DNA of 64,000 bases from Candidatus Acidiferrales bacterium (GCA_963759275.1 CAVWYZ010000014.1:865201-929200); one strand, 5' to 3'; shown: positions 3,001 to 22,128, counted from the stretch's first letter. Numbers and translations: made by a program. The notes: generated by a model not told the origin, from the letters alone.

Positions 3001-3659
3001 TCTATAACGTGGCGAATTGGGCCGACGATCAGGCCGAATTTGACTGCATTTATTCGTATTATGTACCGCCAGGATCACCGGTGGGCACCGTACCGGTGCC
3101 AGATCCACCGTTCAATACTTACAATGCCGCGCAAGTGCTGGACTTCACGAGCTCGGCGTTCCTGACCAACATGCTGATGGGCGACATGGATCCGGAAATG
3201 TTCCACCAGCCGGATCTGCACTTCTCGGACAATTATGTGGCGTTGAACAACGCGGCGCCGAGCGGCACCATTCCGGCGAGCGTGTCCAATTTTGTGGGCA
3301 CCAGCGGGACGCACGTGTCGTCGCTGCTATCGGACACCTACGATCTGACGTTCAGCAAGTACGAAGCGGTGTACAAGCTGCCAGTGCTGACGCCAACGCA
3401 GGATCAGTTGGGCGTGCTGATGCAGAATCGCAACTCGTTCAACTTATCAAATGTAACCGCGAGCATAGTCGGGGCCAACACCTCAAGCGCGACAATTACA
3501 ATTACGATGCCGACATCGGCAACAGTTCCGACGGCGATCATCCCAATTACTGGACTTGCTCTGCCACCCTTGACCCCTGGCTCAGAAATATATGGTGGGC
3601 AGAACATCGCGCACATCACCCTGACGCCGGGGCAGACCATCACGTTTTCCCTGAAATGA
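3..3659 (+). CDS. Large secreted protein, 5'-partial: several Big_2 Ig-like domains followed by an Agd3/CE18-like polysaccharide deacetylase module
   Basis: The frame is open to the window edge. Ig repeats of type SIALTPTSVSL..TQQFTATGTFSDGTSQDVT..V.W.S. C-terminal half has Agd3-like motifs: YEQTFGVRQL..Y..P, TQSIDDFFI (DD), MSHTYDH (HxxxH), EIPRKPNDIFYN, MFHQ. Confidence 0.8.
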   Translation, partial: STAGPTTGLATGIGGGGPITVSATFGSIVSSTTGGDGNLTVVGITSLVLTPAAPTAYLGDANPLNPVGTQNNTVAFTATVNYSDGTSTNVTTAANWSSGTPAVATISNTVGTQGQATILIAGTSTITATYAGASGSTLLTVSPALLESIALTPTSVSLSLMGTQQFTATGTFSDGTSQDVTAQVSWLSADPSVGIAPGGLATALGYNAGAAITASEINAAGTTIISPSATVLVPAPTLVMITVTPPSISLAAGFTQQFAATGTYSDASVKDVTALVTWGSSDTTLASITSGGLASALKVGMVTISATSGSVVGSTTFTVTAPILQSVAVCLGPYPSSTCGSSTVSVGVTLGLNATQQFSALGIYSDSSTQDLTATATWQAHDPIEVNINSAGLATVIGTDNGAHAITASYGTIGPYLNSNTGWVTASSTLPISCPSPTIDMRILVVNNTAQGYADYPAIQQILNYVGTPYDVVDVSSAAPTLSDGGCHGYYQGVIFAYGGDYYNIGSWQAALISYEQTFGVRQLNWYSAPDPNFGLGYTGTQLNTTPPPTGTGAYTAPFTLAAAPVFFYANTTTPLSITYAAVDLATAAPAAGGALTPLLQDTQGNIVSAIYTLNGQQFLTQTFDSNASLTHDLIVAYGLLNWVTKGVFLGDYHVYATQSIDDFFIDDSEWIPGTACLANPLTLDRTAPDASNLPVFRVNSADMAQLAKWQTNKQADPLLAQFELTIAMNGVGTTGNGDWSGLIAPIISSSAGSGAATFTAQDFAALAGQTVTVTNTTNGGGVLNGTWTITAVTSSSATTPGTTTFVVSMPGAPTLITTAERGVADNPGSATASIADDLTANLQSYQQSFHWMSHTYDHPSTLNGLCQSTPTGTGCGDTDNPAVDDIDLEILTNRYVASDPSATAAWMLDSDPSDAVKQLTFNDFNAANIVTPGVTGLNDPNVPAYLYNDGIRYAVSDTSVATTITPPNNNGPNPSPNVGIVNSYAPGIYEIPRKPNDIFYNVANWADDQAEFDCIYSYYVPPGSPVGTVPVPDPPFNTYNAAQVLDFTSSAFLTNMLMGDMDPEMFHQPDLHFSDNYVALNNAAPSGTIPASVSNFVGTSGTHVSSLLSDTYDLTFSKYEAVYKLPVLTPTQDQLGVLMQNRNSFNLSNVTASIVGANTSSATITITMPTSATVPTAIIPITGLALPPLTPGSEIYGGQNIAHITLTPGQTITFSLK

Positions 3660-6429: not shown

Positions 6430-7566
6430 GTGCGGTCTGTTTGGATCGTGTTGGCTATGATGACCATCGCAGCGACTAACCTGTCGTTCGGGCAAAACGC
6501 GCAGGCAGGGAACGCGGTATCGGTCCGGCTGGCGATTTACTATGGCTATCCAAGCCTGGTCAACGAGGCCCGTGGAGATGTGGCGAAGGCCGCGAGCGTG
6601 TTCAGTGCTTATGATGTGGTGGTGCTGGGAGACGGGTTGGAGTTTGCAGACGTGAAGCAGGGCCGTTATCCGGAAGGCGATCCCGGAGAACATCTGAAAT
6701 CGATGCAGATTATTGCTGCCGTACAGAAGCGCAGCCCTACTACCCGCTTTTACGGATATATATGCCTCGGAGAAATTCCGTGGCCGAAAGGTCAACAAAC
6801 AGTACTCTCTCTTCAACTGCTTCAAGAGCGGATAGAGCTTTGGAAACAGATGGGCGTGTCCGGGATTTTTCTAGATGAGGCAGGTTACGACTATGCGGCG
6901 GTGACCCGGGAGCGACAGAACTTCGCGGTGCGGACGATCCACGAATTGGGACTGAGCGCGTTCATGAATGCTTATTTTATCGACCACTTGTTTAGTCCTG
7001 ACGACAATTTACCCCACTCAGCGGGAACGGGGAAGAATCCAAAACATCTCGCCGCCCTATTAGATAGGCGCGATCTTTTCCTGCTTGAGTCGTTCCAAGT
7101 GAAGAGCGGCGCATACGAAAGCATCGATGCGGCGCAGTCGCGGATAGACCGCGCGCTCGGTTATAGGCGTCAATTCGGGTCTAAGGTTTTCGCGACAACG
7201 ACGACTACAGTCCAAGAACCATTTAACGGCGAAAAATTCAACTATGCCTGGTGGACCGCACGATTGTACGGCCTGGACGGATTCAGTTGGGGAGAGCCTG
7301 AGTTTTCGGCGCTGAACAACTTACTCCCCGATCGTCGGTGCGCCACGACCACAGTGCCGCCGTTCGAGCCTCGGTCCGCCGTTCAGTCCGACGGCGAACA
7401 TCTCTGGAGGAAAGCAGGGCCTTACCTGGTAGTCGTCGACACGGAGAAGCACACGGTTCGCCGGATCCTGCAGGTTGATCGCGTCGTCGAAGCAAAATCG
7501 ATTCCCGCGCTGCTGAGTCCGTCGCCAAAGAACTCTCCATTGACATGTGAGGGAGCCGCGGAATGA
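6430..7566 (+). CDS. Secreted TIM-barrel glycoside hydrolase, PelA-hydrolase/Ega3/Sph3-like (alpha-1,4-galactosaminidase candidate)
   Basis: Signal peptide. Motifs IYYGYP, YDVVVLG, FYGYICLG, GVSGIFLDEAGYD and FLLESF give two candidate catalytic acids. Context is next to pelF. Confidence 0.6.
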   Translation: MRSVWIVLAMMTIAATNLSFGQNAQAGNAVSVRLAIYYGYPSLVNEARGDVAKAASVFSAYDVVVLGDGLEFADVKQGRYPEGDPGEHLKSMQIIAAVQKRSPTTRFYGYICLGEIPWPKGQQTVLSLQLLQERIELWKQMGVSGIFLDEAGYDYAAVTRERQNFAVRTIHELGLSAFMNAYFIDHLFSPDDNLPHSAGTGKNPKHLAALLDRRDLFLLESFQVKSGAYESIDAAQSRIDRALGYRRQFGSKVFATTTTTVQEPFNGEKFNYAWWTARLYGLDGFSWGEPEFSALNNLLPDRRCATTTVPPFEPRSAVQSDGEHLWRKAGPYLVVVDTEKHTVRRILQVDRVVEAKSIPALLSPSPKNSPLTCEGAAE

Positions 7567-9104
7567 GCCTGAATCCAAGCGAGATCGAAGAACAACTGCG
7601 CAACGACGGGAATAGTAAAGCGCGATTTCTTAGTCACGGCGAGGTCGCGGCCTTGCTCGAATCGCTCGGTTACAACGATCGTTTGTCCAAGCATCTCGGC
7701 TACTCGAACATCTTCACGTTCGCAGAACATCTCTTTTTAAATCTTCAACGGGATCCGGCGGTAGCAAACCGGCCGGCACAAATATCCGGCGAGCGGTCAC
7801 TCTTAACGGAGTTGCAGTACGCGTTGCGCAAGTTCTCGCTCAGCCTTGCCTATGTCATTCCCTGGATGGCTCTGCTGGTCATGGAGTATCTGCGGCCGAA
7901 TGCGCTCAACGTCCCTCCGGAATTGGGCGGCGCCTTAAGCCTTGCGTTGATCGGGAGCCTGATCGCGACGGGTGGATTCATTCAGGTAATCTCCCGTGGC
8001 GGCAACTTCTATTTTGGTCTGAAAGAGCCTTCCCTGGCGCGACACACGTGCATGAAATTTTTGAACCTGGGATTGACTACCAGCCTACTGCTGGGGTTGC
8101 TGGGTATGATTGTGGGAGCGTACTTCCACCTTTTCGCTGGGCACTATCTCTTGCTGGCGGCGATAAACTTTGTGGCCCTTAGTGCGCTTTGGATGTACTG
8201 CGCCGTCTTATCGGTGCAAGGCCTTGGTTGGTGTGTGCTGCTGGTGTTCTTACTGAGCGCAATGATATGCGGATGCGCGAAGGTTCTGGCCGGCGCGGGA
8301 AATACTCTGCTGTTAACCCTCTGGCCGGTAACGGCTGCCTTGTGCGCCTTTGCCGCAATGCACATGGGTTTCCGCCGTGCTGAAGCTAAAATGTCTGGCG
8401 CTCGTAATAGTGCGAGACCCCGGTTCGGGGTGCAGTCCATCTCCTTGCTGTCGTTTTTCCTGTACGGCACTTTTTATTTCAGCTTTTTATTCGCAGACCG
8501 ACTCGCGGCCGGCAGCGCTGTGCCTTGGGTTTCCGGCCTGAGTTTTGGGATCGACCCGGCTTATAAGAAAGGGATGGACCTGGTTCTGCTGGCCTTCCTG
8601 ATCACCGCGGCAGTGGTGGAGTATCTCAGCGACTCATTCTTGCGATTCTGGCGGGGATTAGCAGCAGAGTTGGAGCAGTCTCGCAATGAAGAATTGGTCC
8701 TAAAACTACGGAAGCGGCACTGGAAAATGATCGGAATCATCCTGTTGATGTTTGTGGTTGTTGCCACGGGTGCGTGGTTCGCATTTTCCCGCGCGAGCGG
8801 AGCGCTACTTTCACCCCGGTTGTTGGAAACGGCGGCGATTGGGGGACTTGGTTATCTAATGTTGAGTATTGCGCTGCTGGAAATCGTTATCTTGTCGAGC
8901 ATCAATTCCACTTCTTTGGCAATGGTCGCCACTGCATTAGGACTTGCCGTGAATCTGGTCACAGGCTACGGGCTGAGTCACTTTGGAGGAGTGCAGTATG
9001 CCGCTGGTGGATTACTTGCCGGGGCGGCAGTGCTGTTATGGACCTGTAACGCGGCGGTAAGGCAAGTACTGCGCCGACCGGATTATCACTATTCCATTTC
9101 CTGA
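7563..9104 (+). CDS. PelG-like multi-pass exporter/flippase
   Basis: About 12 hydrophobic segments after a soluble N-terminal region, FYFSFLFADR motif, position in a pelF operon, ATGA overlap. Confidence 0.55.
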   Translation: MSLNPSEIEEQLRNDGNSKARFLSHGEVAALLESLGYNDRLSKHLGYSNIFTFAEHLFLNLQRDPAVANRPAQISGERSLLTELQYALRKFSLSLAYVIPWMALLVMEYLRPNALNVPPELGGALSLALIGSLIATGGFIQVISRGGNFYFGLKEPSLARHTCMKFLNLGLTTSLLLGLLGMIVGAYFHLFAGHYLLLAAINFVALSALWMYCAVLSVQGLGWCVLLVFLLSAMICGCAKVLAGAGNTLLLTLWPVTAALCAFAAMHMGFRRAEAKMSGARNSARPRFGVQSISLLSFFLYGTFYFSFLFADRLAAGSAVPWVSGLSFGIDPAYKKGMDLVLLAFLITAAVVEYLSDSFLRFWRGLAAELEQSRNEELVLKLRKRHWKMIGIILLMFVVVATGAWFAFSRASGALLSPRLLETAAIGGLGYLMLSIALLEIVILSSINSTSLAMVATALGLAVNLVTGYGLSHFGGVQYAAGGLLAGAAVLLWTCNAAVRQVLRRPDYHYSIS

Positions 9105-9113
9105 GCTCTCCCA

Positions 9114-10874
9114 GTGCCGCCAATCGATCTAGTGCGAGCCGTTTGGATCTTATTCATTTTTACCACGGTGTTTTTCTTCGCGCCGATCTATCTCACCCCA
9201 ACTCGAGAGAGCCCCATGCAACTCCTCCGAGTAGTCGGCAACTTTGTCCGCGCACTACTCGCGGTGGCGATCGTGAGTGTAGTGCTGTCGCGTCTGAAGA
9301 TTTTCAACGCCACCACAATGCTTTTGCTTTTGCTACTTACACTGGTGATCGCCTGGGTGCGCAAGCGCGCGGCAACTTCCCGCGATTGGCTTACAGGCTT
9401 GCAAGAAGCGGTAATCGGAATCGTACGCTTCAGCGAAGGTCAATCGCGCAGTCGTCTCAGGAATGCACCTGCTCCGACCGAACAACGCGAAACGACGTCA
9501 CTTTTGACGGCTCTGCGAGGGAAAGAAATGCTGGCCGTAGCCCTCGTTGTGGTGGTGATCACGACGGGCGTCCTGTTCTTTGCACATTCTTTCCGTGAAC
9601 TGCGTCTCGACCAACCCGAGCAATATGAAGAGTTACTTCGGGGGCGAGAACTGATGCTTAACCTGCCTGTCCACGATCGTCCAGTAGTGTTCCCGTCTGT
9701 GGTGGCGACGATTGCGTTCCTTAGCAGTGCGGATCCAATGGACGTTACGCGCTTCCTAACGCCGGTGTTTGAATTATTCCTGGTTTTTGCGGCTGGCCTC
9801 TTGATTTTCGTATGCACCCGTGGCGCTGTGACCGCCATCGCGGCTGTCTATTGTTTAGGAACAGCCGCTTTCCAGTTCAGCGGAGGTGACGGAGCCGTAC
9901 CGATTTCCGCCGCGGAAAAGATCGAAAGCCTCCTCCGGAGCTCGTTGACAAGAACGCGAGGAAGTCCCGAGTTCGAAATTGGGCTGTTGTGCGTGGTGTT
10001 GACCCTGGCATTTCTGACGACCTGGCTCGAAGACGGCCGGGACTGGGATTCGCTGGTGGACGCAGCGTGCTGCGTGGTGATAGTCGCGGTGGCGTCTCCG
10101 TTTTTGCTTCTCGTTTGTATGATAGCGGCGGGATCGGTGCTGCTTCGACCGGTGGCGGGAATTGCAGCGTTTGTCCTCGTTTCGTACGGCTTGGCCACCT
10201 ACGGCGTGCTGTCTGGCGATCTGAGCGTTCCGCACGGGGGGTATCTGATTCTTGCGCTCGCCGCGGTATTGGGCGTGGGCTGCCTTCTGGGAATAATCGA
10301 ATCGAGATTGCTGGTGCCCATGGGAAAGACCGCCGAGCGAACACTTTTATTTGCTTACGTAGCCGTCGCCGTTCTGGTATTCCGTCCGCACCCGGTTGCT
10401 GCCCAATACCTTGAATACGAAAAAGCGGCTCGTGAAACGCAAGTGATTGCCGATCGATTCCCGCGTCAAACATGGGCCGTTGTGGCTCCCATAGAGCAAT
10501 TGGCGGAAACCCTGGGGTTGGGAGGATACGAGGATTTAGCGAACTTTGTTGAGAAGTATAAGGATCAAGCCGCGAATCCTGAGTTTCGTATTCCTGACGT
10601 GCCGGAGGATTTGTTCATCTATGTCGAAAAGACGCCGTTCCAGTTTTTCTCGCGCGAACCCCAAGTCGTCCCGATGAGTGTACTGGCCGACAGCACCTAC
10701 CGCAGTTACCGTTCACCCGCAGGGCGGGCCAGCCTGGAGTCGGCTGCACTACGGCTCTGTGAAAGCTATCAGCAATCGCACGGCAGCTCGACGGACATAT
10801 TTTATGAGGACCAAGCTCTGCGCATCTATCATTTGCGCCGGGAACCCAATTCGAAAACGGGAACAGGAGGCTGA
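9114..10874 (+). CDS. Unknown multi-pass membrane protein with a C-terminal extracytoplasmic domain (possible GT-C-like or polysaccharide-modifying enzyme)
   Basis: Many TM segments, then a soluble C-terminal domain (EYEKAARET..WAVVAPIEQL..LFIYVEKTPF..YED..LRIY). Tightly linked to the operon. Confidence 0.55.
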   Translation: MPPIDLVRAVWILFIFTTVFFFAPIYLTPTRESPMQLLRVVGNFVRALLAVAIVSVVLSRLKIFNATTMLLLLLLTLVIAWVRKRAATSRDWLTGLQEAVIGIVRFSEGQSRSRLRNAPAPTEQRETTSLLTALRGKEMLAVALVVVVITTGVLFFAHSFRELRLDQPEQYEELLRGRELMLNLPVHDRPVVFPSVVATIAFLSSADPMDVTRFLTPVFELFLVFAAGLLIFVCTRGAVTAIAAVYCLGTAAFQFSGGDGAVPISAAEKIESLLRSSLTRTRGSPEFEIGLLCVVLTLAFLTTWLEDGRDWDSLVDAACCVVIVAVASPFLLLVCMIAAGSVLLRPVAGIAAFVLVSYGLATYGVLSGDLSVPHGGYLILALAAVLGVGCLLGIIESRLLVPMGKTAERTLLFAYVAVAVLVFRPHPVAAQYLEYEKAARETQVIADRFPRQTWAVVAPIEQLAETLGLGGYEDLANFVEKYKDQAANPEFRIPDVPEDLFIYVEKTPFQFFSREPQVVPMSVLADSTYRSYRSPAGRASLESAALRLCESYQQSHGSSTDIFYEDQALRIYHLRREPNSKTGTGG

Positions 10875-10965: not shown

Positions 10966-11886
10966 ATGTACACCGACTTTTACAAGCTGACGCGCAATCC
11001 ATTTGAAATAACGCCCGATCCTTACTTTCTGTATTCCACGAAAAGGCATAAAGAGGCGCTGGCCGCGCTTTATTACGGAGTTCGCCAGCGCAAAGGGTTT
11101 GTGGTGCTGACCGGTGAAGTGGGCACGGGAAAGACGCTGCTGATCCGTTGTCTCTTGCAGCTATGCAAAGGCACGGACATCGCTACCGCGTACGTCTTCA
11201 ATAGCCGGTTGTCGACTCTAGAATTTCTGCAATACGCAGCAACTGATTTGGGCCTCGCCGCCAGTAACAAACCAAAAGGCGACATCCTGGTCGATTTGAA
11301 CCGGTTTCTCCTCAGTCGTTACCATAAAAAATTAACGACTATGATGGTCGTGGACGAGGCGCACCATCTCTCGACCGAAATTTTGGAAGAGATCCGCCTT
11401 CTTACGAATTTGGAGACAGCGGATGAAAAGCTGATCCAAATTGTTCTGGTGGGACAATCGGAACTGAGCGACAAGCTGGACTCCTACGAGTTGCGGCAGC
11501 TGAAACAGCGCATTGCACTGCGCGCTTATCTGGAGCCGCTGGATCTAGAGAACACCAAAGGGTACGTGCGCTGCAGACTTCAGCTCGCCGGAGCCAATTC
11601 CGTTGCGGCCGCTTTGCTTCCAGATGAAACGGTCGCGAGAATCCACCACTTCTCGCGGGGCATCCCGCGTTTGATCAACACCATCTGCGACAATGCGTTA
11701 CTTACAGCATTTGCAAGGCAATTAACGAGTGTGCCCGCCAGCGTCATCGACGAAGTCGCTGAAGAACTGCGATTGCATGTCGGACGGCTGCGCAGTTTGT
11801 CGCTGTTCGAGATGGCTAAGGATCCGGATCAAACGCTGTCCGCTGGACAGAGGCTGCTGGAACTGCGGCAACACCAAAGTCTGTAG
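10966..11886 (+). CDS. ExeA/GspA-like AAA ATPase lacking the C-terminal peptidoglycan-binding part
   Basis: MY..FYKL..NPFEITPDP.FLY, Walker A GEVGTGKT, Walker B MVVDEAHHL, IVLVGQSEL, GIPRLINTICDNALL. Confidence 0.9.
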   Translation: MYTDFYKLTRNPFEITPDPYFLYSTKRHKEALAALYYGVRQRKGFVVLTGEVGTGKTLLIRCLLQLCKGTDIATAYVFNSRLSTLEFLQYAATDLGLAASNKPKGDILVDLNRFLLSRYHKKLTTMMVVDEAHHLSTEILEEIRLLTNLETADEKLIQIVLVGQSELSDKLDSYELRQLKQRIALRAYLEPLDLENTKGYVRCRLQLAGANSVAAALLPDETVARIHHFSRGIPRLINTICDNALLTAFARQLTSVPASVIDEVAEELRLHVGRLRSLSLFEMAKDPDQTLSAGQRLLELRQHQSL

Positions 11887-12086
11887 GAACAACCCTGCCA
11901 TCCTAAGGGAGTTCGTAAAGTGCTTCCGACTTTGGCTCGCGACGACCAAGGACCTGCCTGTACTTCAGAACAGTTTGAGTGACACATGCCGTGTGCTACG
12001 GTGGTGCCACCTAAGCTCTCTAACCCCACGGCGTTCTCCATTCCCGGAATCTATTCTCTGTTGGCTTTCGCTCGAAGGAATTCGCT

Positions 12087-15000
12087 ATGACGTTTTGTGG
12101 CAAACGAGTGGGTAGTTGCTGCCCAACTTTATGGGCGATGCTAACGTTTTTTGTTGTCCTGACAATGACACTGCAAGGTTGCGCGACGACGAGTAAAACC
12201 AACGTTCAGACGATTCCTCCCCTCAGCGTTTCCGTTTCTTCGCTGCCGAATGGACAGGTTGGAACGGCGTACACCGCCATGCTCACCGCAACCGGCGGAG
12301 CTACCCCGTATTCGTGGACGCTGGCCAGTGGGACACTGCCGGCAGGGCTTGCGTTGAATGCTGCTACCGGCGCCATTACGGGGACACCCACGCAGGCAGT
12401 GTCGAATGCTGCGCTTAGCTTTAAGGTGACGGATTCCAGTGTTCCGCCACAGACACAAACAGCCAGCCTCACGCTAACCGTAGACGCCGCGGTGATTCCA
12501 GTGAGTATCACCACAACATCGCTACCAACTGCGACGGTGAACGTGGCATATTCGCAGCAACTGGCGGCGACGGGTGGCAGTGGAAGCTGCACGTGGACAC
12601 TGACTACGCCGGTAGCCGGCTTCTCACTGAGTGCTTCCGGGCTGTTGACTGGCACACCGACGAGCACGACGACTCTCTCGTTGCAAGTAAAAGCGACCGA
12701 CAGCAAGAGCAGCAGTAATTCCGCAACAGCGACGCTCTCGCTGCAGGTCAGCGCAGCAGTTACGCCTGTGAGTATCAGCACGACTACTCTACCAGTTGCC
12801 ACGGAGAGCACCGCCTATTCACAGCAACTCGCGGCCACCGGTGGCAGTGGCAGCTATACGTGGACGCTGACCGCGCCGGTGACTGGCTTTTCGCTGAGTG
12901 CCTCCGGACTGCTGACCGGCACACCGGCGAGCACGGCAACACTTTCGTTCCAAGTGAAGGTAACCGACAGCACGAACAGCAGTAACTTCGCGACGGCGAC
13001 GCTTTCGCTGACGGTCAATGCCACGGTGACCCCGGTGAAGATCACGACAACCACGTTGCCCGCGGCGACCGTGAACGTGGCGTACTCACAGCAACTGGCT
13101 GCGAGTGGTGGCAGTGGCAGCTACACGTGGACCTTGACCACTCCGGTGAGCGGCTTTTCGCTGAGCAGTTCTGGGTTACTGACCGGCACACCAACAAGCA
13201 CGACAACGCTTTCGTTCCAGGTGAAAGCGACGGACGCCACTAGCAGCAGCAACTTCGGGACCACTACGCTCTCGCTAACGGTCAATGCCACCGTGACTCC
13301 TGTAAGCGTTACTACAACGACGTTGCCTGCGGCCACGGTGAACACTGCCTACTCACAGCAACTGGCCGCGAGTGGTGGCAGTGGCAGCTACACGTGGACG
13401 TTGACCACTCCGGTGACGGGCTTCTCGCTGAGTAGTTCTGGGCTGTTGACCGGCACGCCGACAAGCACGACGACGCTTTCTTTCCAGGTGAAGGCCACAG
13501 ACACCAAAACCACGAGCAATTCCGGGACCGCGACCCTGTCGTTGACCGTTCATGCGGCCGCGACTCCTGTAAGCGTGACTACGACCACGTTGCCCGCGGC
13601 GACGGTGAACGTGGCGTACTCACAGCAACTGGCTGCGAGTGGTGGCAGTGGAACGTATAACTGGACGCTGACGACTCCGGTGACGGGCTTCGCATTGAGC
13701 AGCGCTGGGCTGCTGACCGGTACGCCCACAAGTACGACGACGCTTTCTTTTCAGGTGAAAGCGACGGACACCACCAGCGGCAGCAACTTCGGGACGGCGA
13801 CGTTATCCCTGAAGGTGAACGCGGCGGTGGTCCCTGTAAGCGTGACCACAACGACGTTGCCCGCGGCGACGGTGAACGTGGCGTACTCACAGCAACTGGC
13901 CGCGAGTGGTGGAAGTGGAACGTATAACTGGACGCTGACCACTCCGGTGACGGGCTTTTCGTTGAGCAGTTCAGGGCTGCTGACCGGCACACCAACAAGC
14001 ACGACGACGCTTTCGTTCCAGGTGAAAGCGACGGACTCCACCAATAGCAGCGACTCTGGAACCGCCACACTGACGTTATCGGTCAACGCTGCTATTAGCG
14101 GGTCAGCCTTCTACGTTTCTCCTTCCGGAAGCGATTCGAATACCGGCACGCAGTTATCACCGTGGAAGACCATTCAGCACGCGGCCAATTCCGTGCACGC
14201 GGGAGACACCATTTACGTGCGCGCGGGGACCTACAACGAGTCCGTGACCATTGCGGTTTCGGGATCAGCAGCGGCCGGTCCGGTAATTTTCCAGAGCTAC
14301 CCCGGAGAGACGGCGATTGTGGACGGCACCGGGTTGACGCCATCCACTTCTGACGTGCAAGGGCTGTTTAACATCGAGGATGAGAGTTACGTCACGATTC
14401 AGGGATTCGAGATCCGTAACTACCAGACCTCGAGTTCCTCAGCCACGCCGGCGGGTATTTGGATCACCGGAGCAGGGAGCAACATCCAGATCCTGAACAA
14501 CGTGATTCACAACATCGTCACCACGTCGGAGGCCAGCGGCAACGCTTTTGGTATTGCGGTCTATGGGTCGGAAGCGCCCGCTGCGCTGGACAGTGTGACC
14601 ATCAGCGGCAACCAGGTGTACAGCTTGAAGACCGGCAACAGCGAGACGGTGAACGTGGATGGGAACGTGACGAACTTCGTGATCAACAACAACATCATCC
14701 ACGACAACGACAACATCGGCATCGATGTGATCGGATTCGAGGGAGTATCGCCGAATTCCGCGTACGACTATGCGCGGAACGGGGAAGTGAGCGGGAACAC
14801 GGTATACAACATATCGGCGATCAACAATCCGGGAGAAGGGAATGAGTACGATGCCGACGGGATCTACGTAGACGGGGGATCGCAAGTGGTGATCGAGCGC
14901 AACCTGGTGCACAACTGCGATCTGAACATCGAGGTGGCCAGCGAGCACAAAGGGCACGTCAGCAGCTACGTGACGGTGCGAAACAACCTGGTGTATGCGG

Positions 15001-15530
15001 GCAATTCCGTGGGCATTTCGATTGGCGGGTATGCCAGCAATGTGGGCGGCACGGACCACTGCACCATCGTGAACAACACGCTGTACGGCAACGACACGAA
15101 GAATACCGGCAGCGGGGAACTGCAAGTGCAGTACTACGCCACCAACAACATCTTCGAGAACAACATTGTGTACGCCACGTCGCAGGGTCTGCTGATCAAC
15201 AACTACACGAACAGCGAAGCGAATCCGGTGGTGGTGGATTACAACCTGTACTTCTCTTCGGTGAACTCGGGGTCGGCCGATTTTATCTGGAACGGCACAG
15301 ATCACACGGGATTTTCCGGCTACCAGTCGGCGACGGGGAACGACAGCCATTCCCAGTATGCCGATCCGCAGTTCCTGAGCCTGACAACACCGAACTTGCA
15401 GGTGCAAGCGACATCCCCGGCCGTGAATGGTGGGACGAACCTGGGGGCCGCGGTGGTGGGCACGGTGGACTATGCGGGTAATGCTCGCGTGCAAGGCAGC
15501 ACCATCGATATCGGCGCTTACGAACAGTAG
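12087..15530 (+). CDS. Predicted lipoprotein with 7 He_PIG (putative Ig) repeats and a C-terminal right-handed beta-helix (DUF1565/PL9-like) domain
   Basis: Lipobox LQGC at residue 32; seven ~89-aa repeats (TTTLP.ATVNVAYSQQLAASGGSG.Y.W); FYVSPSGSDSN.GT..SPWKTIQHA..GDTIYVRAGTYNE followed by beta-helix repeats. Confidence 0.85.
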   Translation: MTFCGKRVGSCCPTLWAMLTFFVVLTMTLQGCATTSKTNVQTIPPLSVSVSSLPNGQVGTAYTAMLTATGGATPYSWTLASGTLPAGLALNAATGAITGTPTQAVSNAALSFKVTDSSVPPQTQTASLTLTVDAAVIPVSITTTSLPTATVNVAYSQQLAATGGSGSCTWTLTTPVAGFSLSASGLLTGTPTSTTTLSLQVKATDSKSSSNSATATLSLQVSAAVTPVSISTTTLPVATESTAYSQQLAATGGSGSYTWTLTAPVTGFSLSASGLLTGTPASTATLSFQVKVTDSTNSSNFATATLSLTVNATVTPVKITTTTLPAATVNVAYSQQLAASGGSGSYTWTLTTPVSGFSLSSSGLLTGTPTSTTTLSFQVKATDATSSSNFGTTTLSLTVNATVTPVSVTTTTLPAATVNTAYSQQLAASGGSGSYTWTLTTPVTGFSLSSSGLLTGTPTSTTTLSFQVKATDTKTTSNSGTATLSLTVHAAATPVSVTTTTLPAATVNVAYSQQLAASGGSGTYNWTLTTPVTGFALSSAGLLTGTPTSTTTLSFQVKATDTTSGSNFGTATLSLKVNAAVVPVSVTTTTLPAATVNVAYSQQLAASGGSGTYNWTLTTPVTGFSLSSSGLLTGTPTSTTTLSFQVKATDSTNSSDSGTATLTLSVNAAISGSAFYVSPSGSDSNTGTQLSPWKTIQHAANSVHAGDTIYVRAGTYNESVTIAVSGSAAAGPVIFQSYPGETAIVDGTGLTPSTSDVQGLFNIEDESYVTIQGFEIRNYQTSSSSATPAGIWITGAGSNIQILNNVIHNIVTTSEASGNAFGIAVYGSEAPAALDSVTISGNQVYSLKTGNSETVNVDGNVTNFVINNNIIHDNDNIGIDVIGFEGVSPNSAYDYARNGEVSGNTVYNISAINNPGEGNEYDADGIYVDGGSQVVIERNLVHNCDLNIEVASEHKGHVSSYVTVRNNLVYAGNSVGISIGGYASNVGGTDHCTIVNNTLYGNDTKNTGSGELQVQYYATNNIFENNIVYATSQGLLINNYTNSEANPVVVDYNLYFSSVNSGSADFIWNGTDHTGFSGYQSATGNDSHSQYADPQFLSLTTPNLQVQATSPAVNGGTNLGAAVVGTVDYAGNARVQGSTIDIGAYEQ
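12501..14090 (+). repeat. Intragenic tandem repeat, 267-bp period (He_PIG repeats 2-7)
   Basis: gtgagtatca recurs at 12501 and 12768 (267 bp apart); later units are progressively more similar to each other. Confidence 0.85.
13570..15529 (+). repeat. Direct repeat copy 1 (~1.96 kb), partner at 17063-19022
   Basis: Constant offset of 3493 bp. About a dozen mismatches by eye, all in the first ~600 bp; the rest appears identical. Confidence 0.9.
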
Positions 15531-15641
15531 CTTGGAGCGATGTAGGCTGCATGGTTTTGGCTTCGTGGACCTTCGTGGTTGTCTTGGATTCATTGGAACA
15601 AGGGTATCCGTGCGGACCAGACTGACTGCTCTCCATAACCT

Positions 15642-16367
15642 ATGACTGCAATATCGGTACAACTGCCCTCCCATTGGACCGATGAATTGCTAGCCGCCGC
15701 CCGGACGGGCGACAAAGACGCCTTCAGTGCTTTGGTGGCCGGGCTGTCTCCGCGTCTTCACCGACTAGCGCGCCGCTTGACGCGAAACATAGAAGACGCC
15801 GAAGACGTGTGTCAGGAATCGATCTTAAAAGCGTTTACCAAGCTGGACCAATTTGCGGAGACACAAGAAGCGGCAAGTGATGATTTCCGCAATTGGCTTA
15901 CGACCATCACGGTGAACTCCGCGATCGATTGTAACCGGCGGAAACGGGCTTTCCAGATTGTCGACCTGGACGAACGCTCTTGCCCACACCGCGCGTCCTA
16001 CCAGACATCATGTGGATGGTATAGCGAGAATCCAGAAGGGTTCTACGCGCGGAAAGAACAAGCTCGGATCGTTGTGGATGCCATAACGAAACTGCCGAGG
16101 CGACTGCGAAATGTGTGCCTTCTCCGGAATGTGATGGATTTTTCCACTAAGGAAGTCGCCGCTCAATTGGGGATTTCGACGAATGCCGTGAGATTACGTT
16201 TATTTCGTGCGCACGGACAATTAAGAAAGAGTCTTGGGGTGATGGCGGTGGAACGCCGGCGGAAATATCGTCGCACGACACAATCCGGCGCCGCGAATCC
16301 GAGGTGGCAGCGCAATCGTAAGATCACGAGTAGAAATGATGCGCCTCCAGTAATTCTGCCTAATTGA
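15642..16367 (+). CDS. ECF (sigma-24 type) RNA polymerase sigma factor
   Basis: Region 2 (DAEDVCQESILKAF..L..F; WLTTITVNSAID) and region 4 (LP..LR.V.LLR....STKEVAAQLGISTNAVRLRLFRA). Confidence 0.88.
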   Translation: MTAISVQLPSHWTDELLAAARTGDKDAFSALVAGLSPRLHRLARRLTRNIEDAEDVCQESILKAFTKLDQFAETQEAASDDFRNWLTTITVNSAIDCNRRKRAFQIVDLDERSCPHRASYQTSCGWYSENPEGFYARKEQARIVVDAITKLPRRLRNVCLLRNVMDFSTKEVAAQLGISTNAVRLRLFRAHGQLRKSLGVMAVERRRKYRRTTQSGAANPRWQRNRKITSRNDAPPVILPN

Positions 16368-16608
16368 TTTCAGGCAGCTCGGCTCTCATCAATTCAGTAA
16401 GCGAGTCTTTCCTTCCTGTGCGGCCGCGCGTGCAGCTACGCGCGCGAGTACTGGTATAACCAGAAGTACTCCGCTCCTGTACCCCCCTCGAAAATCGCAT
16501 TGTACTTTAATCGTACCTTTGTACAGGTATCTTCCCGCACTTCCTCACTGCTAGAGTGAAATTCCCGGTTCTCGACCCCCATACACAGTCACCCGAACCG
16601 AATCTGAA

Positions 16609-19023
16609 TTGATTTCTGGAACGCTCTCCTTGGGGGAAACGATGATAATTATGCAACATATACGGCCCAGGGCCTCCCGCTCTTTTCTGTCGATTCTATT
16701 CGCTCTTCTAATCACTGTTGTTGGAGCGACTCAAGGACTTGCCCAGAACCACCATGGTGGCGGAGGAAAGAACGCAACTCCCCTCAAGATCTCGAATACC
16801 CCTTTGCCAGGGGGACAAGTCGGCGTGGCATATAGTGCCGCACTTACAGCAAGCGGGGGAACGGAGCCCTATACGTGGAGCCTCACCAGGGGCGCGTTGC
16901 CTGGCGGTGTCAGTTTGAATTCGTCCACGGGCGTGGTTAGCGGCACTCCTACTGCGGCCGTAACCGGCAATCTGGTTTCCTTTCGGGTTAAGGACTCCAG
17001 TCATCCAGCAGAGAAAAAATCGGTCAGCCTGTCGTTGACGATAAATTCAGTGCCGCCGGCGTTAAGCGTGACCACAACGACGTTGCCCGCGGCGACGGTG
17101 AACGTGGCGTACTCACAGCAACTGGCTGCGAGTGGTGGCAGTGGAACGTATAACTGGACGCTGACGACTCCGGTGACGGGCTTCGCATTGAGCAGCGCTG
17201 GGCTGCTGACCGGTACGCCCACAAGTACGACGACGCTTTCTTTTCAGGTGAAAGCGACGGACACCACCAGCAGCAGCAACTTCGGGACGGCGACGTTAAC
17301 TCTGAAGGTGAACGCGGCGGTGGTCCCTGTAAGCGTGACCACAACGACGTTGCCCGCGGCGACGGTGAACGTGGCGTACTCACAGCAACTGGCCGCGAGT
17401 GGTGGAAGTGGAACGTATAACTGGACGCTGACGACTCCGGTGACGGGCTTTTCGTTGAGCAGTTCAGGGCTGCTGACCGGCACACCAACAAGCACGACGA
17501 CGCTTTCGTTCCAGGTGAAAGCGACGGACTCCACCAATAGCAGCGACTCTGGAACCGCCACACTGACGTTATCGGTCAACGCTGCTATTAGCGGGTCAGC
17601 CTTCTACGTTTCACCTTCTGGCAGCGATTCGAATACCGGTACGCAGTTATCACCGTGGAAGACCATTCAGCACGCGGCCAATTCCGTGCACGCGGGAGAC
17701 ACCATTTACGTGCGCGCGGGGACCTACAACGAGTCCGTGACCATTGCGGTTTCGGGATCAGCAGCGGCCGGTCCGGTAATTTTCCAGAGCTACCCCGGAG
17801 AGACGGCGATTGTGGACGGCACCGGGTTGACGCCATCCACTTCTGACGTGCAAGGGCTGTTTAACATCGAGGATGAGAGTTACGTCACGATTCAGGGATT
17901 CGAGATCCGTAACTACCAGACCTCGAGTTCCTCAGCCACGCCGGCGGGTATTTGGATCACCGGAGCAGGGAGCAACATCCAGATCCTGAACAACGTGATT
18001 CACAACATCGTCACCACGTCGGAGGCCAGCGGCAACGCTTTTGGTATTGCGGTCTATGGGTCGGAAGCGCCCGCTGCGCTGGACAGTGTGACCATCAGCG
18101 GCAACCAGGTGTACAGCTTGAAGACCGGCAACAGCGAGACGGTGAACGTGGATGGGAACGTGACGAACTTCGTGATCAACAACAACATCATCCACGACAA
18201 CGACAACATCGGCATCGATGTGATCGGATTCGAGGGAGTATCGCCGAATTCCGCGTACGACTATGCGCGGAACGGGGAAGTGAGCGGGAACACGGTATAC
18301 AACATATCGGCGATCAACAATCCGGGAGAAGGGAATGAGTACGATGCCGACGGGATCTACGTAGACGGGGGATCGCAAGTGGTGATCGAGCGCAACCTGG
18401 TGCACAACTGCGATCTGAACATCGAGGTGGCCAGCGAGCACAAAGGGCACGTCAGCAGCTACGTGACGGTGCGAAACAACCTGGTGTATGCGGGCAATTC
18501 CGTGGGCATTTCGATTGGCGGGTATGCCAGCAATGTGGGCGGCACGGACCACTGCACCATCGTGAACAACACGCTGTACGGCAACGACACGAAGAATACC
18601 GGCAGCGGGGAACTGCAAGTGCAGTACTACGCCACCAACAACATCTTCGAGAACAACATTGTGTACGCCACGTCGCAGGGTCTGCTGATCAACAACTACA
18701 CGAACAGCGAAGCGAATCCGGTGGTGGTGGATTACAACCTGTACTTCTCTTCGGTGAACTCGGGGTCGGCCGATTTTATCTGGAACGGCACAGATCACAC
18801 GGGATTTTCCGGCTACCAGTCGGCGACGGGGAACGACAGCCATTCCCAGTATGCCGATCCGCAGTTCCTGAGCCTGACAACACCGAACTTGCAGGTGCAA
18901 GCGACATCCCCGGCCGTGAATGGTGGGACGAACCTGGGGGCCGCGGTGGTGGGCACGGTGGACTATGCGGGTAATGCTCGCGTGCAAGGCAGCACCATCG
19001 ATATCGGCGCTTACGAACAGTAA
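16609..19023 (+). CDS. Secreted protein with 3 He_PIG repeats and the same beta-helix domain as 12087-15530 (start probably ATG 16651)
   Basis: Sec/SPI-type signal (..LLITVVGATQGLA-Q), no lipobox; C-terminal ~650 aa nearly identical to the upstream paralog. Confidence 0.85.
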   Translation: MISGTLSLGETMIIMQHIRPRASRSFLSILFALLITVVGATQGLAQNHHGGGGKNATPLKISNTPLPGGQVGVAYSAALTASGGTEPYTWSLTRGALPGGVSLNSSTGVVSGTPTAAVTGNLVSFRVKDSSHPAEKKSVSLSLTINSVPPALSVTTTTLPAATVNVAYSQQLAASGGSGTYNWTLTTPVTGFALSSAGLLTGTPTSTTTLSFQVKATDTTSSSNFGTATLTLKVNAAVVPVSVTTTTLPAATVNVAYSQQLAASGGSGTYNWTLTTPVTGFSLSSSGLLTGTPTSTTTLSFQVKATDSTNSSDSGTATLTLSVNAAISGSAFYVSPSGSDSNTGTQLSPWKTIQHAANSVHAGDTIYVRAGTYNESVTIAVSGSAAAGPVIFQSYPGETAIVDGTGLTPSTSDVQGLFNIEDESYVTIQGFEIRNYQTSSSSATPAGIWITGAGSNIQILNNVIHNIVTTSEASGNAFGIAVYGSEAPAALDSVTISGNQVYSLKTGNSETVNVDGNVTNFVINNNIIHDNDNIGIDVIGFEGVSPNSAYDYARNGEVSGNTVYNISAINNPGEGNEYDADGIYVDGGSQVVIERNLVHNCDLNIEVASEHKGHVSSYVTVRNNLVYAGNSVGISIGGYASNVGGTDHCTIVNNTLYGNDTKNTGSGELQVQYYATNNIFENNIVYATSQGLLINNYTNSEANPVVVDYNLYFSSVNSGSADFIWNGTDHTGFSGYQSATGNDSHSQYADPQFLSLTTPNLQVQATSPAVNGGTNLGAAVVGTVDYAGNARVQGSTIDIGAYEQ
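17063..19022 (+). repeat. Direct repeat copy 2 (~1.96 kb)
   Basis: Matches 13570-15529; the two copies diverge at the last base of the stop codon (TAG vs TAA). Confidence 0.9.
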
Positions 19024-19186
19024 ATCCGAGGTTCGCTCGGGGTTACTTGTTTTTCACGACGAAGTGATCCCGGCCCGGCGATTGACAACCGATTGGTCAA
19101 GCGGCGTTCGGTGCCCGAAGATTATCACCTGGGCGCCGCTATCGACCCGATAGGCCGTAAGACGATCATATAACCGGCTACCAACA

Positions 19187-20836
19187 CTATTTTTTTTGAA
19201 GAAGGACGGCCCACTCTTTGGAGTCCGGGGGAGCAGGTGAGGACCATGAGGGTCCTGACGCGTCCGAAGTTGAAATTCGTTCGCCCGTGAGCGGGCTGAA
19301 CCATTCGACCGAGTAGGTTCCTGGCTGGAGTTGGAGTGTGAACCGGCCGCCTTGGGGAAGATAGACGGCGTAGATATGACCGGGATCGGCGAGGCAATAG
19401 TTGCCGTGGTCGACGAGTTCGTCGTGAGGATTCGTCTTCCACCAGTCAAAGCCCGTCATGAAGTCGACGATGTGGCCGTAGCCGAAGAACATGGTCATGG
19501 AATCGTCGCCACGACCGTTGACCCAGCCGCCGCCAGTATCCGGCCAAACGTTGGTGCCGCGACGGGCGGACTCGCCGGCAGTTTGATAGGCGCCAGCCAT
19601 GACAATGTCCCAGGCGACGCGACGGAGGGAATCAGCAGACTCCTGATTCGGAAAGGCCCAGAGCGGGTAATGGTCTTCGTAACCATACTCCTCGTTGGTC
19701 TGCGGAATGATGCGGTCCGCCTGCTCCTGGAATTTGCGGGACTGGAGCATAAGGGCATGTTGATTGCGAGACCATTCCTGGTAGGAGGTGAAACCGAACC
19801 AGGCGGAAGCACGATCCTGGTGAACGGATTTGGCGTCGACGACCACATCGACGGGATGACTGGTGGCGAGGTGATGGTAAGGATCGAGTTGCACGAGGAA
19901 GGTGCCAGTGTCGTGGGTCCAGGCATCGTCGCGAAAACGTTCGAGGTCGTCGCCGAGGTCCCAGGTAATGTTGGAGAAGGAGGCGAAGCGAGCGACGGCG
20001 TAGCGGAGGAAACGGCGCTCATCCTCACTGGCGGCGACGGGGTGAATGCGCGAATCATTCATGTCGAGAACGATGGAGATGATGACGTCACGGTCGCGGG
20101 CAAAACGAAGCATGGATTCGAAGCGGCGCCAGTGGGGAATGTTGAAGCGCGAGTAATCGAAGTCGGGATGGAGAAAATCATGCGTATCGCGCGCGGGCCA
20201 AGCGGCAAGGTCCATGGTGAAGTTGTCGGACTGCATGATGGGCTCGCCGTAATAAACGTTGGTGCGGCCGGCGAGAGTGACGCGAAGCCGATTGACTTTG
20301 AGACGGTGTAGCCGTTCGATCGAATACTGCACGATGCGATCGTCCTTCCAACCAAGCAACCAATACGCCGTAGTGCCATTAAAGAAGTAGTGCTCGCCGG
20401 TGCCTTCCCATAGGAAATGCCAGGGATATTGCGGGTCGACGCGGAGAGGACCGCGTCGATGAGATGGCGTCGCTTGAAACTCACCTCGGAGGGTCTTGGT
20501 GAAGGCGCCTTGTGAAAACACGACGGCGAAGCTGTAGTTGCCGGACGCGGGAGGCATGAAGCGAATGCGAAAGACAGAACCATCGGGCGAATCGCAAAAG
20601 CCGGAGACGTGCCAGGACTGGCTTGAGGCCGTCAGATTGAAGTCACCCTCGAATGACGCGTCTGTGAAGGGATTAGCGGCGTCGGGAGACGAAAGGGAAG
20701 CGGAAAGTTCGAAAATATCAAAGACCTCAACGGTTGGAGAGGGAATGGAAAAGGAAACGTCTCGAGGTGCGGCCAGGAGAAAAGGAGAAAACAGAACGAC
20801 GACGAAGAGAGAGGCGCCGAATCGCAAGGATTTCAT
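19187..20836 (-). CDS. Secreted DUF5060 + DUF4038 (apiosidase-like GH) + putative collagen-binding domain protein
   Basis: Signal peptide; NPFTD..F...GF.D..DG..FRIRFMP..G; YAVARFASFSNITWDL; ATSHP; TNEEYGYE; C-terminal YCLADPG..YAVYLP.GG..W.SP.TG. Confidence 0.7.
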   Translation of the reverse strand: MKSLRFGASLFVVVLFSPFLLAAPRDVSFSIPSPTVEVFDIFELSASLSSPDAANPFTDASFEGDFNLTASSQSWHVSGFCDSPDGSVFRIRFMPPASGNYSFAVVFSQGAFTKTLRGEFQATPSHRRGPLRVDPQYPWHFLWEGTGEHYFFNGTTAYWLLGWKDDRIVQYSIERLHRLKVNRLRVTLAGRTNVYYGEPIMQSDNFTMDLAAWPARDTHDFLHPDFDYSRFNIPHWRRFESMLRFARDRDVIISIVLDMNDSRIHPVAASEDERRFLRYAVARFASFSNITWDLGDDLERFRDDAWTHDTGTFLVQLDPYHHLATSHPVDVVVDAKSVHQDRASAWFGFTSYQEWSRNQHALMLQSRKFQEQADRIIPQTNEEYGYEDHYPLWAFPNQESADSLRRVAWDIVMAGAYQTAGESARRGTNVWPDTGGGWVNGRGDDSMTMFFGYGHIVDFMTGFDWWKTNPHDELVDHGNYCLADPGHIYAVYLPQGGRFTLQLQPGTYSVEWFSPLTGERISTSDASGPSWSSPAPPDSKEWAVLLQKK

Positions 20837-21014: not shown

Positions 21015-21581
21015 CTACAGGGGAGCACTGCTGACGACGTCATTCTTAAAATCTTTAAAAAGAACCAACTTTGGGGCGCTTAGTCCGTCCTTCAGATTCT
21101 TCTGCCAGAGAAGGCCGGATAGTTTCCCTTGCGGATTCTGGGAGTAGACGCAGATCATGTCCACGTTTGGACTGGAATCCGCGACAGGTACGAAGCCGGC
21201 CTCGGGCTTTTGCGAGGGCGATAGCGGGCGGGATGACGGAATCCCATTGCCTGCACTATTCGCGCTGCGAATATTCACCACGCGGCCCTTCCGAACGAAT
21301 ACGACCAAGTCCGCCTCACTGCGGCGAATCGTTAGTATGTAATAACCCCAATTCTGCACGGCGTTCTGGACGTTGGCCACCGCCTCCCGGTCCTCAGGAG
21401 TGACACGGGGATCGCGGACAGCGCCTGGACTGTCTGGCCCGTCAAAGGCTTCGACGAAAATGAACTTTGCGGACGCAAGAATCGCGAGCGGCTCAGGCTT
21501 CTTGGACTGTTGGCCAGATTGGGCGCCGGAAAGCGAGAGGCAAATCAACATCACGAGACCCGGAAACACGAAATAGCGCAT
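21015..21581 (-). CDS. Hypothetical exported protein
   Basis: GAGGAGGG RBS before ATG 21581; signal peptide MRYFVFPGLVMLICLSLSGAQ. Confidence 0.6.
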   Translation of the reverse strand: MRYFVFPGLVMLICLSLSGAQSGQQSKKPEPLAILASAKFIFVEAFDGPDSPGAVRDPRVTPEDREAVANVQNAVQNWGYYILTIRRSEADLVVFVRKGRVVNIRSANSAGNGIPSSRPLSPSQKPEAGFVPVADSSPNVDMICVYSQNPQGKLSGLLWQKNLKDGLSAPKLVLFKDFKNDVVSSAPL

Positions 21582-22128
21582 GTTCCCTCCTCGACGAAAA
21601 AGGGTAACCGGATATCTGGGTGTGCGGGGATGACCACCAGAGTTGCGGGGGACTGAGAGAATATGGCAATGGGGTCCAGTCCGCAACATTATTATTAAGC
21701 AGGAGACGCCAGGCGATGGCTCAGTCGACCTCGAACGCGACCCTGGGAACTATTGGGTACTCGTGCGCAGTTCTCGGTGTCACAAAGTTTAGCCGAGCTT
21801 CCCGGGTGCACCCCGTTACGATGAAGACGGTCACGAACATCGAGACCGGGGGCCAATCTTAGAAATCGCTACAAAGAGTTCGCCCCGAAGACCCTGGAAA
21901 CACTTGTGACGCACGTACTATCCCTCGTCCTGCCGCTGGAGGATAAGTACTCCTGGTGCCACTAATGAGCGAGGACGTGGCTAGGCGAACGCTTCCGCCT
22001 TGCGGAGCTAGCAAACTGTCTCGCTTCGTTTCGCGGCAGATGCAACGGGCGAGAACGTCCTGTTGGTCTTTGTGACATGAGTTCTGATTGTGGCGGTGGC
22101 GGGTGCGAAAGGAACGGAGGAGACCGTT

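Follow-up and report, generated by a model that had tools for sequence, protein, structure and literature searches.

How do two neighbouring genes come to share a nearly identical 3' half when they begin with different export signals, and does that identity record a young duplication, a continuing exchange of sequence, or a genetic switch? The question is raised by positions 12087–19023 of a 64,000-nt stretch of DNA (the window, to which all coordinates refer unless another contig is named) from Candidatus Acidoferrales (Terriglobia, Acidobacteriota), for which we compiled an open-reading-frame (ORF) map and a Pfam scan. Gene A (12087–15530, + strand, 1147 aa) encodes a lipoprotein signal, seven immunoglobulin (Ig)-like He_PIG repeats, and a beta-helix module. 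Gene B (16642–19023, + strand) encodes a signal of the signal peptidase I (SPase-I) type, three He_PIG repeats, and the same beta-helix module. A gene for a sigma-70 family factor of the extracytoplasmic function (ECF) type (15642–16367, + strand) lies in the spacer between them. An earlier, sequence-only reading of the window had proposed either very recent duplication or ongoing gene conversion as the source of the shared half, and had suggested that recombination between the two copies might serve as a switch. The results below make it very likely that A and B are old tandem paralogues that have been kept near-identical over their 3' 1.9 kb by recurrent gene conversion, and that they are not the products of a recent duplication.

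Comparison of each base with the base 3493 positions downstream shows that 13587–15529, comprising the last two Ig repeats and the whole beta-helix module of gene A, matches 17080–19022 in gene B (both + strand) over 1943 nt, and local alignment of the repeat gives 1960 nt at 99.4% identity. All eight mismatches (13779, 13806, 13808, 13940, 14120, 14126, 14129, and 14147) fall within the initial 561 nt; the remaining 1382 nt (14148–15529) contain none, in agreement with the earlier estimate of about 1.96 kb of near-identical 3' sequence, about 1.4 kb of it free of differences. Only two amino acids differ between the copies (G565S and S574T). The copies part at the last base of the stop codon (TAG vs. 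TAA), and the flanks 3' of the A and B stop codons are unrelated (31/100 matches).

The 5' parts of the two genes differ as the sequence-only reading had described them, both in the signal sequences and in the Pfam matches. The signal peptide of gene A ends in TLQGC, followed by A, with Cys32 encoded at 12180–12182; the product of gene B has an N-terminal hydrophobic stretch that leads to a cleavage site ATQGLA, followed by Q. The longest ORF for gene B is 16609–19023, with a TTG start at 16609; translation probably begins with the ATG at 16642 (or 16651), as judged by the alignment of the start codon with those of orthologues. Pfam assigns to A seven He_PIG stretches followed by DUF1565 and Beta_helix, and to B three He_PIG stretches followed by the same C-terminal module. 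The He_PIG array of gene A (12501–14036, + strand) consists of tandem 267-nt (89-aa) units (period 267, 5.8 copies, 79% matches), and eight register-matched copies of the unit are counted across A and B.

To place the pair in time, we drew on a scan of one genome per species, in which the closest relatives are metagenome-assembled genomes of Ca. Acidoferrales, and we compared seven species-level genomes: the window, L001, L002, L005, L006, L007, and L008. All six relatives share the order PelF-like gene, ATPase gene, gene A, gene B, and the comparison of orthologous loci for one vs. two copies, which the sequence-only reading had recommended, returns two copies in 7/7 genomes. The first 420 nt of the genes group by position, with identities of 58–91% for A vs. 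A, 57–91% for B vs. B, and 49–62% for A vs. B. The lipobox Cys is kept in seven of the eight A sequences aligned (window, L001, L002, L005, L006, L008, and a further contig, L081), in the variants LQGC, LYGC, LSGC, MQGC, and FQGC (L/M/F-x-G-C); the aligned N-terminal stretch of the eighth, from L007, stops short of the expected lipobox site. An AFAQ/GLAQ-type (A-x-A-type) cleavage site is kept in all B orthologues. By its lipobox, the product of gene A is thus predicted to be a bacterial lipoprotein. The conserved Cys and the conserved cleavage site, together with the grouping of N-termini by position, indicate that the clade inherited the A/B pair, complete with both kinds of export signal, from its ancestor. 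The lengths of the stalks do not follow the same pattern: He_PIG repeat number, as estimated from protein lengths, ranges from about 2 to 8 across orthologues of A and B, and B is longer than A in all six relatives. The description of a long anchored form and a short secreted form therefore holds for the window species and fails as a conserved feature of the pair. The stalks (12216–14075 in gene A of the window) appear to change length rapidly, through unequal recombination within the 267-nt array.

Concerted evolution by gene conversion is identified in the literature by synteny, synonymous-site identity, and recurrence (PMC6053082). The beta-helix halves exhibit all of these. Their DNA groups by genome: A and B are 99.6–99.9% identical to each other in five of the seven genomes (window, L001, L005, L006, and L008), and between genomes the same DNA is 72–96% identical, which is the range also observed for the neighbouring ATPase gene. 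Synonymous divergence (dS, by the NG86 method) is 0.14–1.6 between orthologues in different genomes and 0–0.012 between A and B within each of the five genomes. L005, L006, and L008 are separated from one another by a dS of about 0.15, yet A equals B within each, so that homogenisation must have continued past their split.

The boundaries of the homogenised segments, and the two genomes in which homogenisation is incomplete, provide a second line of evidence. Tract lengths are 1.7–2.5 kb, and in five genomes the tracts end within a few bases of the stop codon. L002 is a mosaic in which A and B show patchy identity (86%), and L007 is a mosaic in which 1787 nt at 99.9% identity are followed by a 3' segment of 700 nt at 73.5%. 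In the unconverted part of L007, A is closest to the window and L001 (82%), and B is closest to L005, L006, and L008 (87.5%). The simplest reading of this pattern is that there were two old paralogue types, of which the A-type would have been fixed in both genes of the window and L001, and the B-type in both genes of L005, L006, and L008. One further candidate for homogenisation, a distant locus with two beta-helix genes (L067), was set aside, its copies being 76% identical.

The same process can be followed within the species. Exact-protein look-ups retrieved three further contigs of the window species (about 99% identical): L077/L080, L083 (noisy), and L084. The sigma gene is followed by B in all three; 5' of the sigma gene, A is called intact in L084, is present as two frameshifted ORFs in L077/L080, and is not called in the noisy L083. 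Within the part of the repeat that shows no difference in the window, L080 has 13 differences between B and A, grouped at 14459–14909, and L084 has a larger number. B-type alleles common to L080 and L084 occur at 14459, 14519, 14536, 14585, 14625, and 14686 (A-coordinates), positions at which B of the window carries the A sequence. A further set of sites (13779, 13806, 13940, 14120, 14129, and 14774) is polymorphic in both paralogues across strains. Four soil metagenome runs (X1–X4) hold DNA of the locus as short-read contigs, which we aligned to the window, and alleles of both kinds are found independently in the contigs of run X3. Two lesions in the strain contigs may be long-read consensus errors or may mark pseudogenes: a 1-nt deletion in L080 (window-equivalent 13878), which splits gene A into ORFs of 616 and 527 aa, and a frameshift in L084 (L084:8001–8727), which splits the sigma gene into ORFs of 169 and 77 aa.

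The strain comparison also bears on the direction of transfer. Between the window and L080, gene A and the DNA upstream of it are nearly identical (about one difference in the 3.7 kb 5' of A), and the flank 3' of B differs by about 2% from 19197 onward; divergence this uneven implies that a boundary of recombination between strains lies at the locus or close to it. With the downstream flank of B about 2% apart and A near-identical, A-to-B conversion is the best explanation for those parts of B that match A exactly in both strains. The results point to a latest event in the window in which at least 1.38 kb of A was copied over B, with 13587–15529 as the putative donor and 17080–19022 as the putative recipient.

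The observations therefore comprise similarity within genomes that exceeds similarity between orthologues, a duplication that precedes the species splits, identity at synonymous sites, and conversion tracts, mosaics, and polymorphisms shared between the two genes. We conclude that the ongoing gene conversion offered in the sequence-only reading is strongly supported, by synteny, by synonymous-site homogeneity, by the mosaics, and by recurrence. As a mechanism, we propose intrachromosomal gene conversion: repeated, non-reciprocal transfer between the direct repeats by homologous recombination, probably of a RecA type, would homogenise the 3' 1.9 kb. The 3' limit of the tracts would be set by the end of homology at the stop codon; the 5' limit would vary, lying within the Ig repeats or, for L007, in the beta-helix itself. 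The outcome would be that both genes set the same glycan-cleaving module on a He_PIG stalk, with A exported as a lipoprotein and B exported by way of an ordinary signal peptide.

Between the repeats of the window lies the 241-aa sigma gene, as the sequence-only reading had correctly placed it: its product has matches to Sigma70_r2, Sigma70_r4_2, and Sigma70_ECF, contains both regions 2 and 4 expected of an ECF factor, and scores 94 bits against TIGR02937 (cut-off 42.9). A co-transcribed cognate anti-sigma gene is typical, although not universal, for ECF sigma factors; no ORF with such features lies beside this one, and the next gene is B, 275 nt downstream. The sigma gene occupies the same position in L081 (order ATPase, A, sigma, B), in L082, and in the same-species contigs L080, L083, and L084, and is absent from L002 and L005–L008. 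In L001, the A-B spacer contains a frameshifted remnant of the sigma 3' end (L001:11547–11630; LRLFRAHGQLRK plus 17 more residues / KNLGVVTFERRRPYRRT). A lineage-specific insertion of the sigma gene, which we considered, is ruled out by the copies in L081 and L082 and by the decayed 3' remnant in L001; the distribution indicates a gene that is ancestral to the sub-clade and was later lost in L001. The spacers of L005, L007, and L008 are 0.4–0.6 kb and gene-free. The spacer of L002 holds an IS110-family transposase gene (L002:11987–13054, – strand), and that of L006 holds an IS4-like (DDE_Tnp_1_4; 4916–6349, – strand) and an IS630-like (DDE_3; 6623–7711, – strand) transposase gene; A and B of L006 are still 99.8% identical across the resulting 3.35-kb spacer. 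On these comparisons, the A-B spacer is an insertion hotspot and the sigma gene a variable passenger of it, neither universal nor needed for the relationship between A and B.

Against this background we weighed two forms of the idea that recombination between the repeats is put to use. In the first, to which we give little credence, unequal recombination between the repeats would yield tandem amplification, or a 3.5-kb circle carrying the complete gene for the secreted form (B 5' end joined to the shared module) and the sigma gene, and would thereby give heritable, reversible control over copy number, while conversion would keep the two enzymes matched to their polymer; if true, the locus would couple copy-number control of a released enzyme and a regulator with the matching of anchored and released forms to the lineage's fast-evolving polymer. 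The second, which we regard as improbable, is a functional switch, in which recombination would delete or amplify a 3493-bp unit (the sigma gene plus the 5' part of B) and so alter exopolysaccharide processing or regulation, leaving a single lipoprotein gene on the chromosome and a circle, or an extra unit, that carries the sigma gene beside an intact B-type gene. The geometry of the direct repeats is right for this. Homologous recombination between direct repeats of about 2 kb occasionally deletes or duplicates the intervening unit, and RecA-dependent events of this kind are to be expected here at some low rate, with a junction background of roughly 1e-4 to 1e-3 for any 2-kb repeat. In addition, one Joint Genome Institute (JGI) contig, L082, is laid out as the predicted circle or tandem unit would be: its 3905 bp comprise a 3761-bp unit with a terminal redundancy of 144 nt and read B 5' end, repeat, 3' flank of A, sigma gene, B 5' end. 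However, a de Bruijn-graph cycle through a collapsed repeat yields the same contig, which is therefore not diagnostic.

The remaining evidence runs against a switch. The spacer and B are kept in 7/7 genomes and in 3/3 same-species contigs that can be read across the locus (L080, L083, and L084), none of the same-species contigs being of a deleted form; in X1–X4 the spacer is covered to the same depth as the flanks; and no recombinase gene is present in the A-B segment of the window (12087–19023), where the sigma gene is the only gene between the repeats. The cargo of the spacer is not conserved (sigma gene, sigma remnant, IS110, IS4-like plus IS630-like, or none), and the long-term retention of both genes argues that deletion is selected against. 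A search for the deleted, single-copy state among ATPase-anchored metagenome contigs covered 80 loci, at none of which a beta-helix gene lies downstream; the contigs from close relatives are 5 kb or less and end before or within A. The 3493-bp excision proposed in the sequence-only reading stands as repeat geometry, and its use as a switch has no support: both genes persist in every genome compared, and the sigma gene is absent or decayed in most of the relatives that still homogenise A and B.

A different alternative is that the identity is an artefact, in which one gene was misassembled as two or diverged copies were homogenised by consensus polishing. The sources are metagenome assemblies, contig names suggest long-read assemblers, and reads that lie within the 1.4-kb identical tract are unassignable to either copy. 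Against this, short-read contigs from the four runs cross all four junctions between repeat and unique DNA (A-left 13355–13634, A-right 15500–16027, B-left 16644–17092, and B-right 18993–19227), the depth of the repeat in these contigs is 1.4–2.2 times that of the flanks (in X2 the repeat is a single 1648-nt contig at 10.6x, with flanks at about 4.7x), and no variant bubble is present over the identical tract in X1, X2, or X4. The four junctions and the raised repeat depth show that the two copies and their identity are not artefacts of the window's contig, so that the misassembly of one gene, the first failure that the sequence-only reading had asked to be checked, did not occur. The short-read contigs are shorter than the 1382-nt identical tract and are uninformative on deletion or circle forms; an X2 contig that links B-type single-nucleotide polymorphisms to the flank of A was rejected as a recombinant, being an arbitrary path through the collapsed repeat. 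Moreover, identity within the genome recurs in five independently assembled genomes, and L002 and L007 keep diverged segments, which means that assembly pipelines do not homogenise by default. We consider an artefact highly improbable.

Still less can be said for a very recent tandem duplication in this lineage, by which B (or A) arose and the copies have not yet diverged. It would produce what the window shows between the copies, a dS near 0.01 and a perfect 1382-nt tract. The signal peptides and first domains of A and B, however, are non-homologous to each other and each orthologous by position in the seven genomes; the pair is syntenic in all seven; the 3' halves of the L007 paralogues are still about 26% diverged; older B alleles persist in sister strains; and the repeat stops exactly at the stop codon, with unrelated flanks beyond it. 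These results refute the very recent duplication that the sequence-only reading had put forward, and leave it only the faintest likelihood. Extreme purifying selection on protein and codon usage, without recombination, is practically negligible as an explanation: the module protein is indeed highly conserved in its family (about 110 invariant columns), but equally constrained orthologues have a dS of 0.14–1.6 vs. 0–0.012 within genomes, and sharp tract boundaries and mosaics are not made by selection alone.

Several considerations weigh on the other side of recurrent conversion as we have described it. The identity may be a neutral consequence of having 2-kb direct repeats 1–3.5 kb apart rather than a product of selection. 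The donor direction rests on four strain-level contigs, which are metagenome consensus sequences in which strain mixing could blur single sites. More generally, all of the genomes are metagenome assemblies, and polishing of long-read assemblies can blend strains or erase differences between near-identical repeats; exact difference counts and some of the shared polymorphisms could in part be artefact, and L083 is visibly noisy.

Conserved non-coding blocks are present 5' of both genes. The block 5' of gene A (11957–11998, + strand) reads CCTGTAC-N4-GAACAG ... TGTGCTA, with invariant columns in 7 genomes. The block 5' of gene B (16447–16530, + strand) is GTAC-rich (AGTACTGG..CCAG.AGTACT, TCCTGTAC, TTGTAC, TACCTTTGTACAGGT), with columns that are invariant in 8 genomes, whatever the content of the spacer upstream. 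Both blocks carry CTGTAC/GTACAG half-sites, to which the B block adds the palindrome AGTACTGG...CCAGAAGTACT and TACCTTTGTACAGGT; the coding DNA of the genomes that share the blocks (from among the window, L001, L002, L005–L008, and L081) is only 72–96% identical. The blocks are probably operator or promoter elements for one regulator of both genes, and their conservation suggests that this regulator is other than the spacer sigma factor. The 8-mer TCCTGTAC is not enriched within the window, and no convincing conserved motif for a shared or ECF-type promoter is present 5' of the sigma gene in the window, L081, and L082. Matches from a sigma-70 promoter scan were no better than chance, and an Rfam scan of 11800–19300, the conserved blocks included, gave no credible match. 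A consensus scan for terminators gave a weak terminator-like hairpin that spans the stop codon of gene A (15527–15550, + strand) and a terminator-like hairpin directly 3' of the stop codon of gene B (19025–19041, + strand). Long antisense ORFs run through both beta-helix copies (14439–15674, – strand, 411 aa; 17932–18987, – strand, 351 aa); most likely they arise incidentally from sense-frame composition.

What the homogenised module does can be approached from its predicted fold. The module of gene A (14076–15527, + strand) has DUF1565, Pel9A-like, and Beta_helix matches and a C-terminal choice-of-anchor-Q motif. An AlphaFold2 model built from a 42-sequence alignment is a right-handed beta-helix (pLDDT 82, pTM 0.82), with low confidence for the last 50 residues; residues 221–234 of the model hold an invariant acidic cluster, HDNDN...D...E. 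A Foldseek search of the PDB with this model places GH136 lacto-N-biosidases, the GH120 enzyme XylC, and PL9 lyases (5olq, 1ru4) at the top ranks, followed by PL6 lyases, alginate epimerases, and phage tailspikes and, lower, the Vibrio matrix lyase RbmB, with E-values of 3e-10 to 3e-5 and template-modelling (TM) scores of about 0.4–0.56. The module carries a precomputed Pfam match to Pel9A-like_beta_helix and reaches no curated family threshold besides those of generic domains; its family is large, with over 5000 members at E <= 1e-20, the majority from soil Acidobacteriota. Fold and gene position make it most likely that the module cleaves or trims the cluster's own polysaccharide, as a lyase or hydrolase, and the guess of a lyase or hydrolase in the sequence-only reading is consistent with the predicted fold (GH136, GH120, PL9, and PL6) and with the gene context. 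The form encoded by A would be lipid-tethered on its Ig-repeat stalk and the form encoded by B would be free. Three features temper the functional assignment: the TM scores of the fold matches are only about 0.5, sequence similarity to solved structures (XylC and PL9, by protein and profile search) is limited to the N-terminal cap, and the NCBIfam PelN model gives 42 bits against a cut-off of 740.

The gene context is an exopolysaccharide cluster. Directly 5' of gene A lies an ATPase gene of the type associated with the XrtA/PEP-CTERM system (10966–11886, + strand; TIGR03015, E 1.7e-84, 283.5 bits, below the 324.5-bit equivalog cut-off). The ATPase has an AAA_22 domain and is the last conserved cluster gene before A; its orthologues lie directly 5' of A in L001, L002, and L005–L008, and it serves as the synteny anchor. 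Further upstream are genes for a large protein with Big_2 and an Agd3-type deacetylase domain, for an HlyD-like adaptor, and for a PelF equivalog (NF038011, 157.8 bits vs. a cut-off of 100) with DUF3492 and a GT4 domain; PelA-E and PelG had no Pfam or NCBIfam match in the libraries used. The neighbouring exopolysaccharide operon of the sequence-only reading is consistent with this context, and a flavour of Pel and galactosaminogalactan (GAG) systems describes it fairly, though most Pel core genes are undetected. Between the PelF-like gene and the ATPase gene, 6430–10874 holds three genes without a family match, one (6430–7566) predicted to encode a secreted protein and two (7563–9104 and 9114–10874) multi-pass membrane proteins with about 9–11 predicted spans; homologues of these two were found in L001 and are absent from L002, L005, L007, and L008, where PelF is directly followed by the ATPase. 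Convergent with gene B on its 3' side is a DUF5060/apiosidase-like (GH140-type) gene (19187–20836, – strand). L007 is without this gene there, and B is followed at once by the next conserved gene, the homologue of 21015–21689.

For biology, domain-limited concerted evolution is visible here at three depths (species, sister species at a dS of about 0.15, and strains of one species), and would be one way to let the targeting parts of an anchored and a released enzyme evolve independently of each other while a single catalytic sequence is kept in both. For practice, the locus is a warning that such pairs break short-read assemblies and give circular-looking contigs, and that their apparent youth misleads the dating of duplications. 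For biochemistry, it marks a large beta-helix family, as yet uncharacterised, whose link in this clade with a Pel/GAG-like cluster makes it a reasonable target for work on acidobacterial matrix turnover.

By Foldseek, the module has the same predicted fold as GH136 LnbX (5gqc), GH120 XylC (3vst), PL9 lyases (5olq, 1ru4), PL6 lyases, and RbmB (9ozl). The sequence of its N-terminal cap is similar to those of XylC and the PL9 rhamnogalacturonan lyase, and, like RbmB of Vibrio cholerae, it is encoded beside exopolysaccharide biosynthesis genes; it differs from this set in that the TM scores are only about 0.4–0.56 and that it passes only generic-domain thresholds. A glycan-cleaving enzyme inside an exopolysaccharide cluster is the usual arrangement. 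Like the Pel and the fungal or bacterial GAG systems, with their processing enzymes PelA, Sph3, Ega3, and Agd3, the cluster has a PelF-equivalog glycosyltransferase and an Agd3-type deacetylase domain. Unlike them, its candidate processing enzyme is a beta-helix, duplicated and carried on an Ig-repeat stalk, its genes include one for a PEP-CTERM-system-type ATPase, and PelA, B, C, D, E, and G are undetected with the libraries used.

As an evolutionary phenomenon, the pair is of a known kind. Segmental gene conversion between paralogues for outer-membrane proteins or adhesins occurs at babA/babB and homA/homB of Helicobacter and at omp2a/omp2b of Brucella. The A/B pair resembles these in its part-gene tracts, its mosaic alleles, and its polymorphisms shared across paralogous loci; they are usually seen as generators of surface variation in pathogens, whereas the net effect here is that two differently targeted proteins of a soil bacterium retain one common enzyme module. 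Concerted evolution by gene conversion is established in prokaryotes (PMC6053082): Wang and Chen (2018) catalogued 26 genes, confining themselves to full-length cases and leaving partial ones for future work (PMC6053082). Like the bacterial concerted paralogues tufA/tufB, the amoCAB copies, and that set, A and B are more alike within a genome than orthologues are, synonymous sites included, and their duplication is older than speciation, with recurrent homogenisation lineage by lineage. The time depth here lies within one order of uncultured Acidobacteriota; that of the catalogued cases is hundreds of millions of years. Unlike those cases, only the catalytic module and the adjacent one to three Ig repeats are homogenised here, and the targeting signals remain distinct, so that what is unusual in the A/B pair is the restriction of concerted evolution to the catalytic module of two differently targeted proteins.

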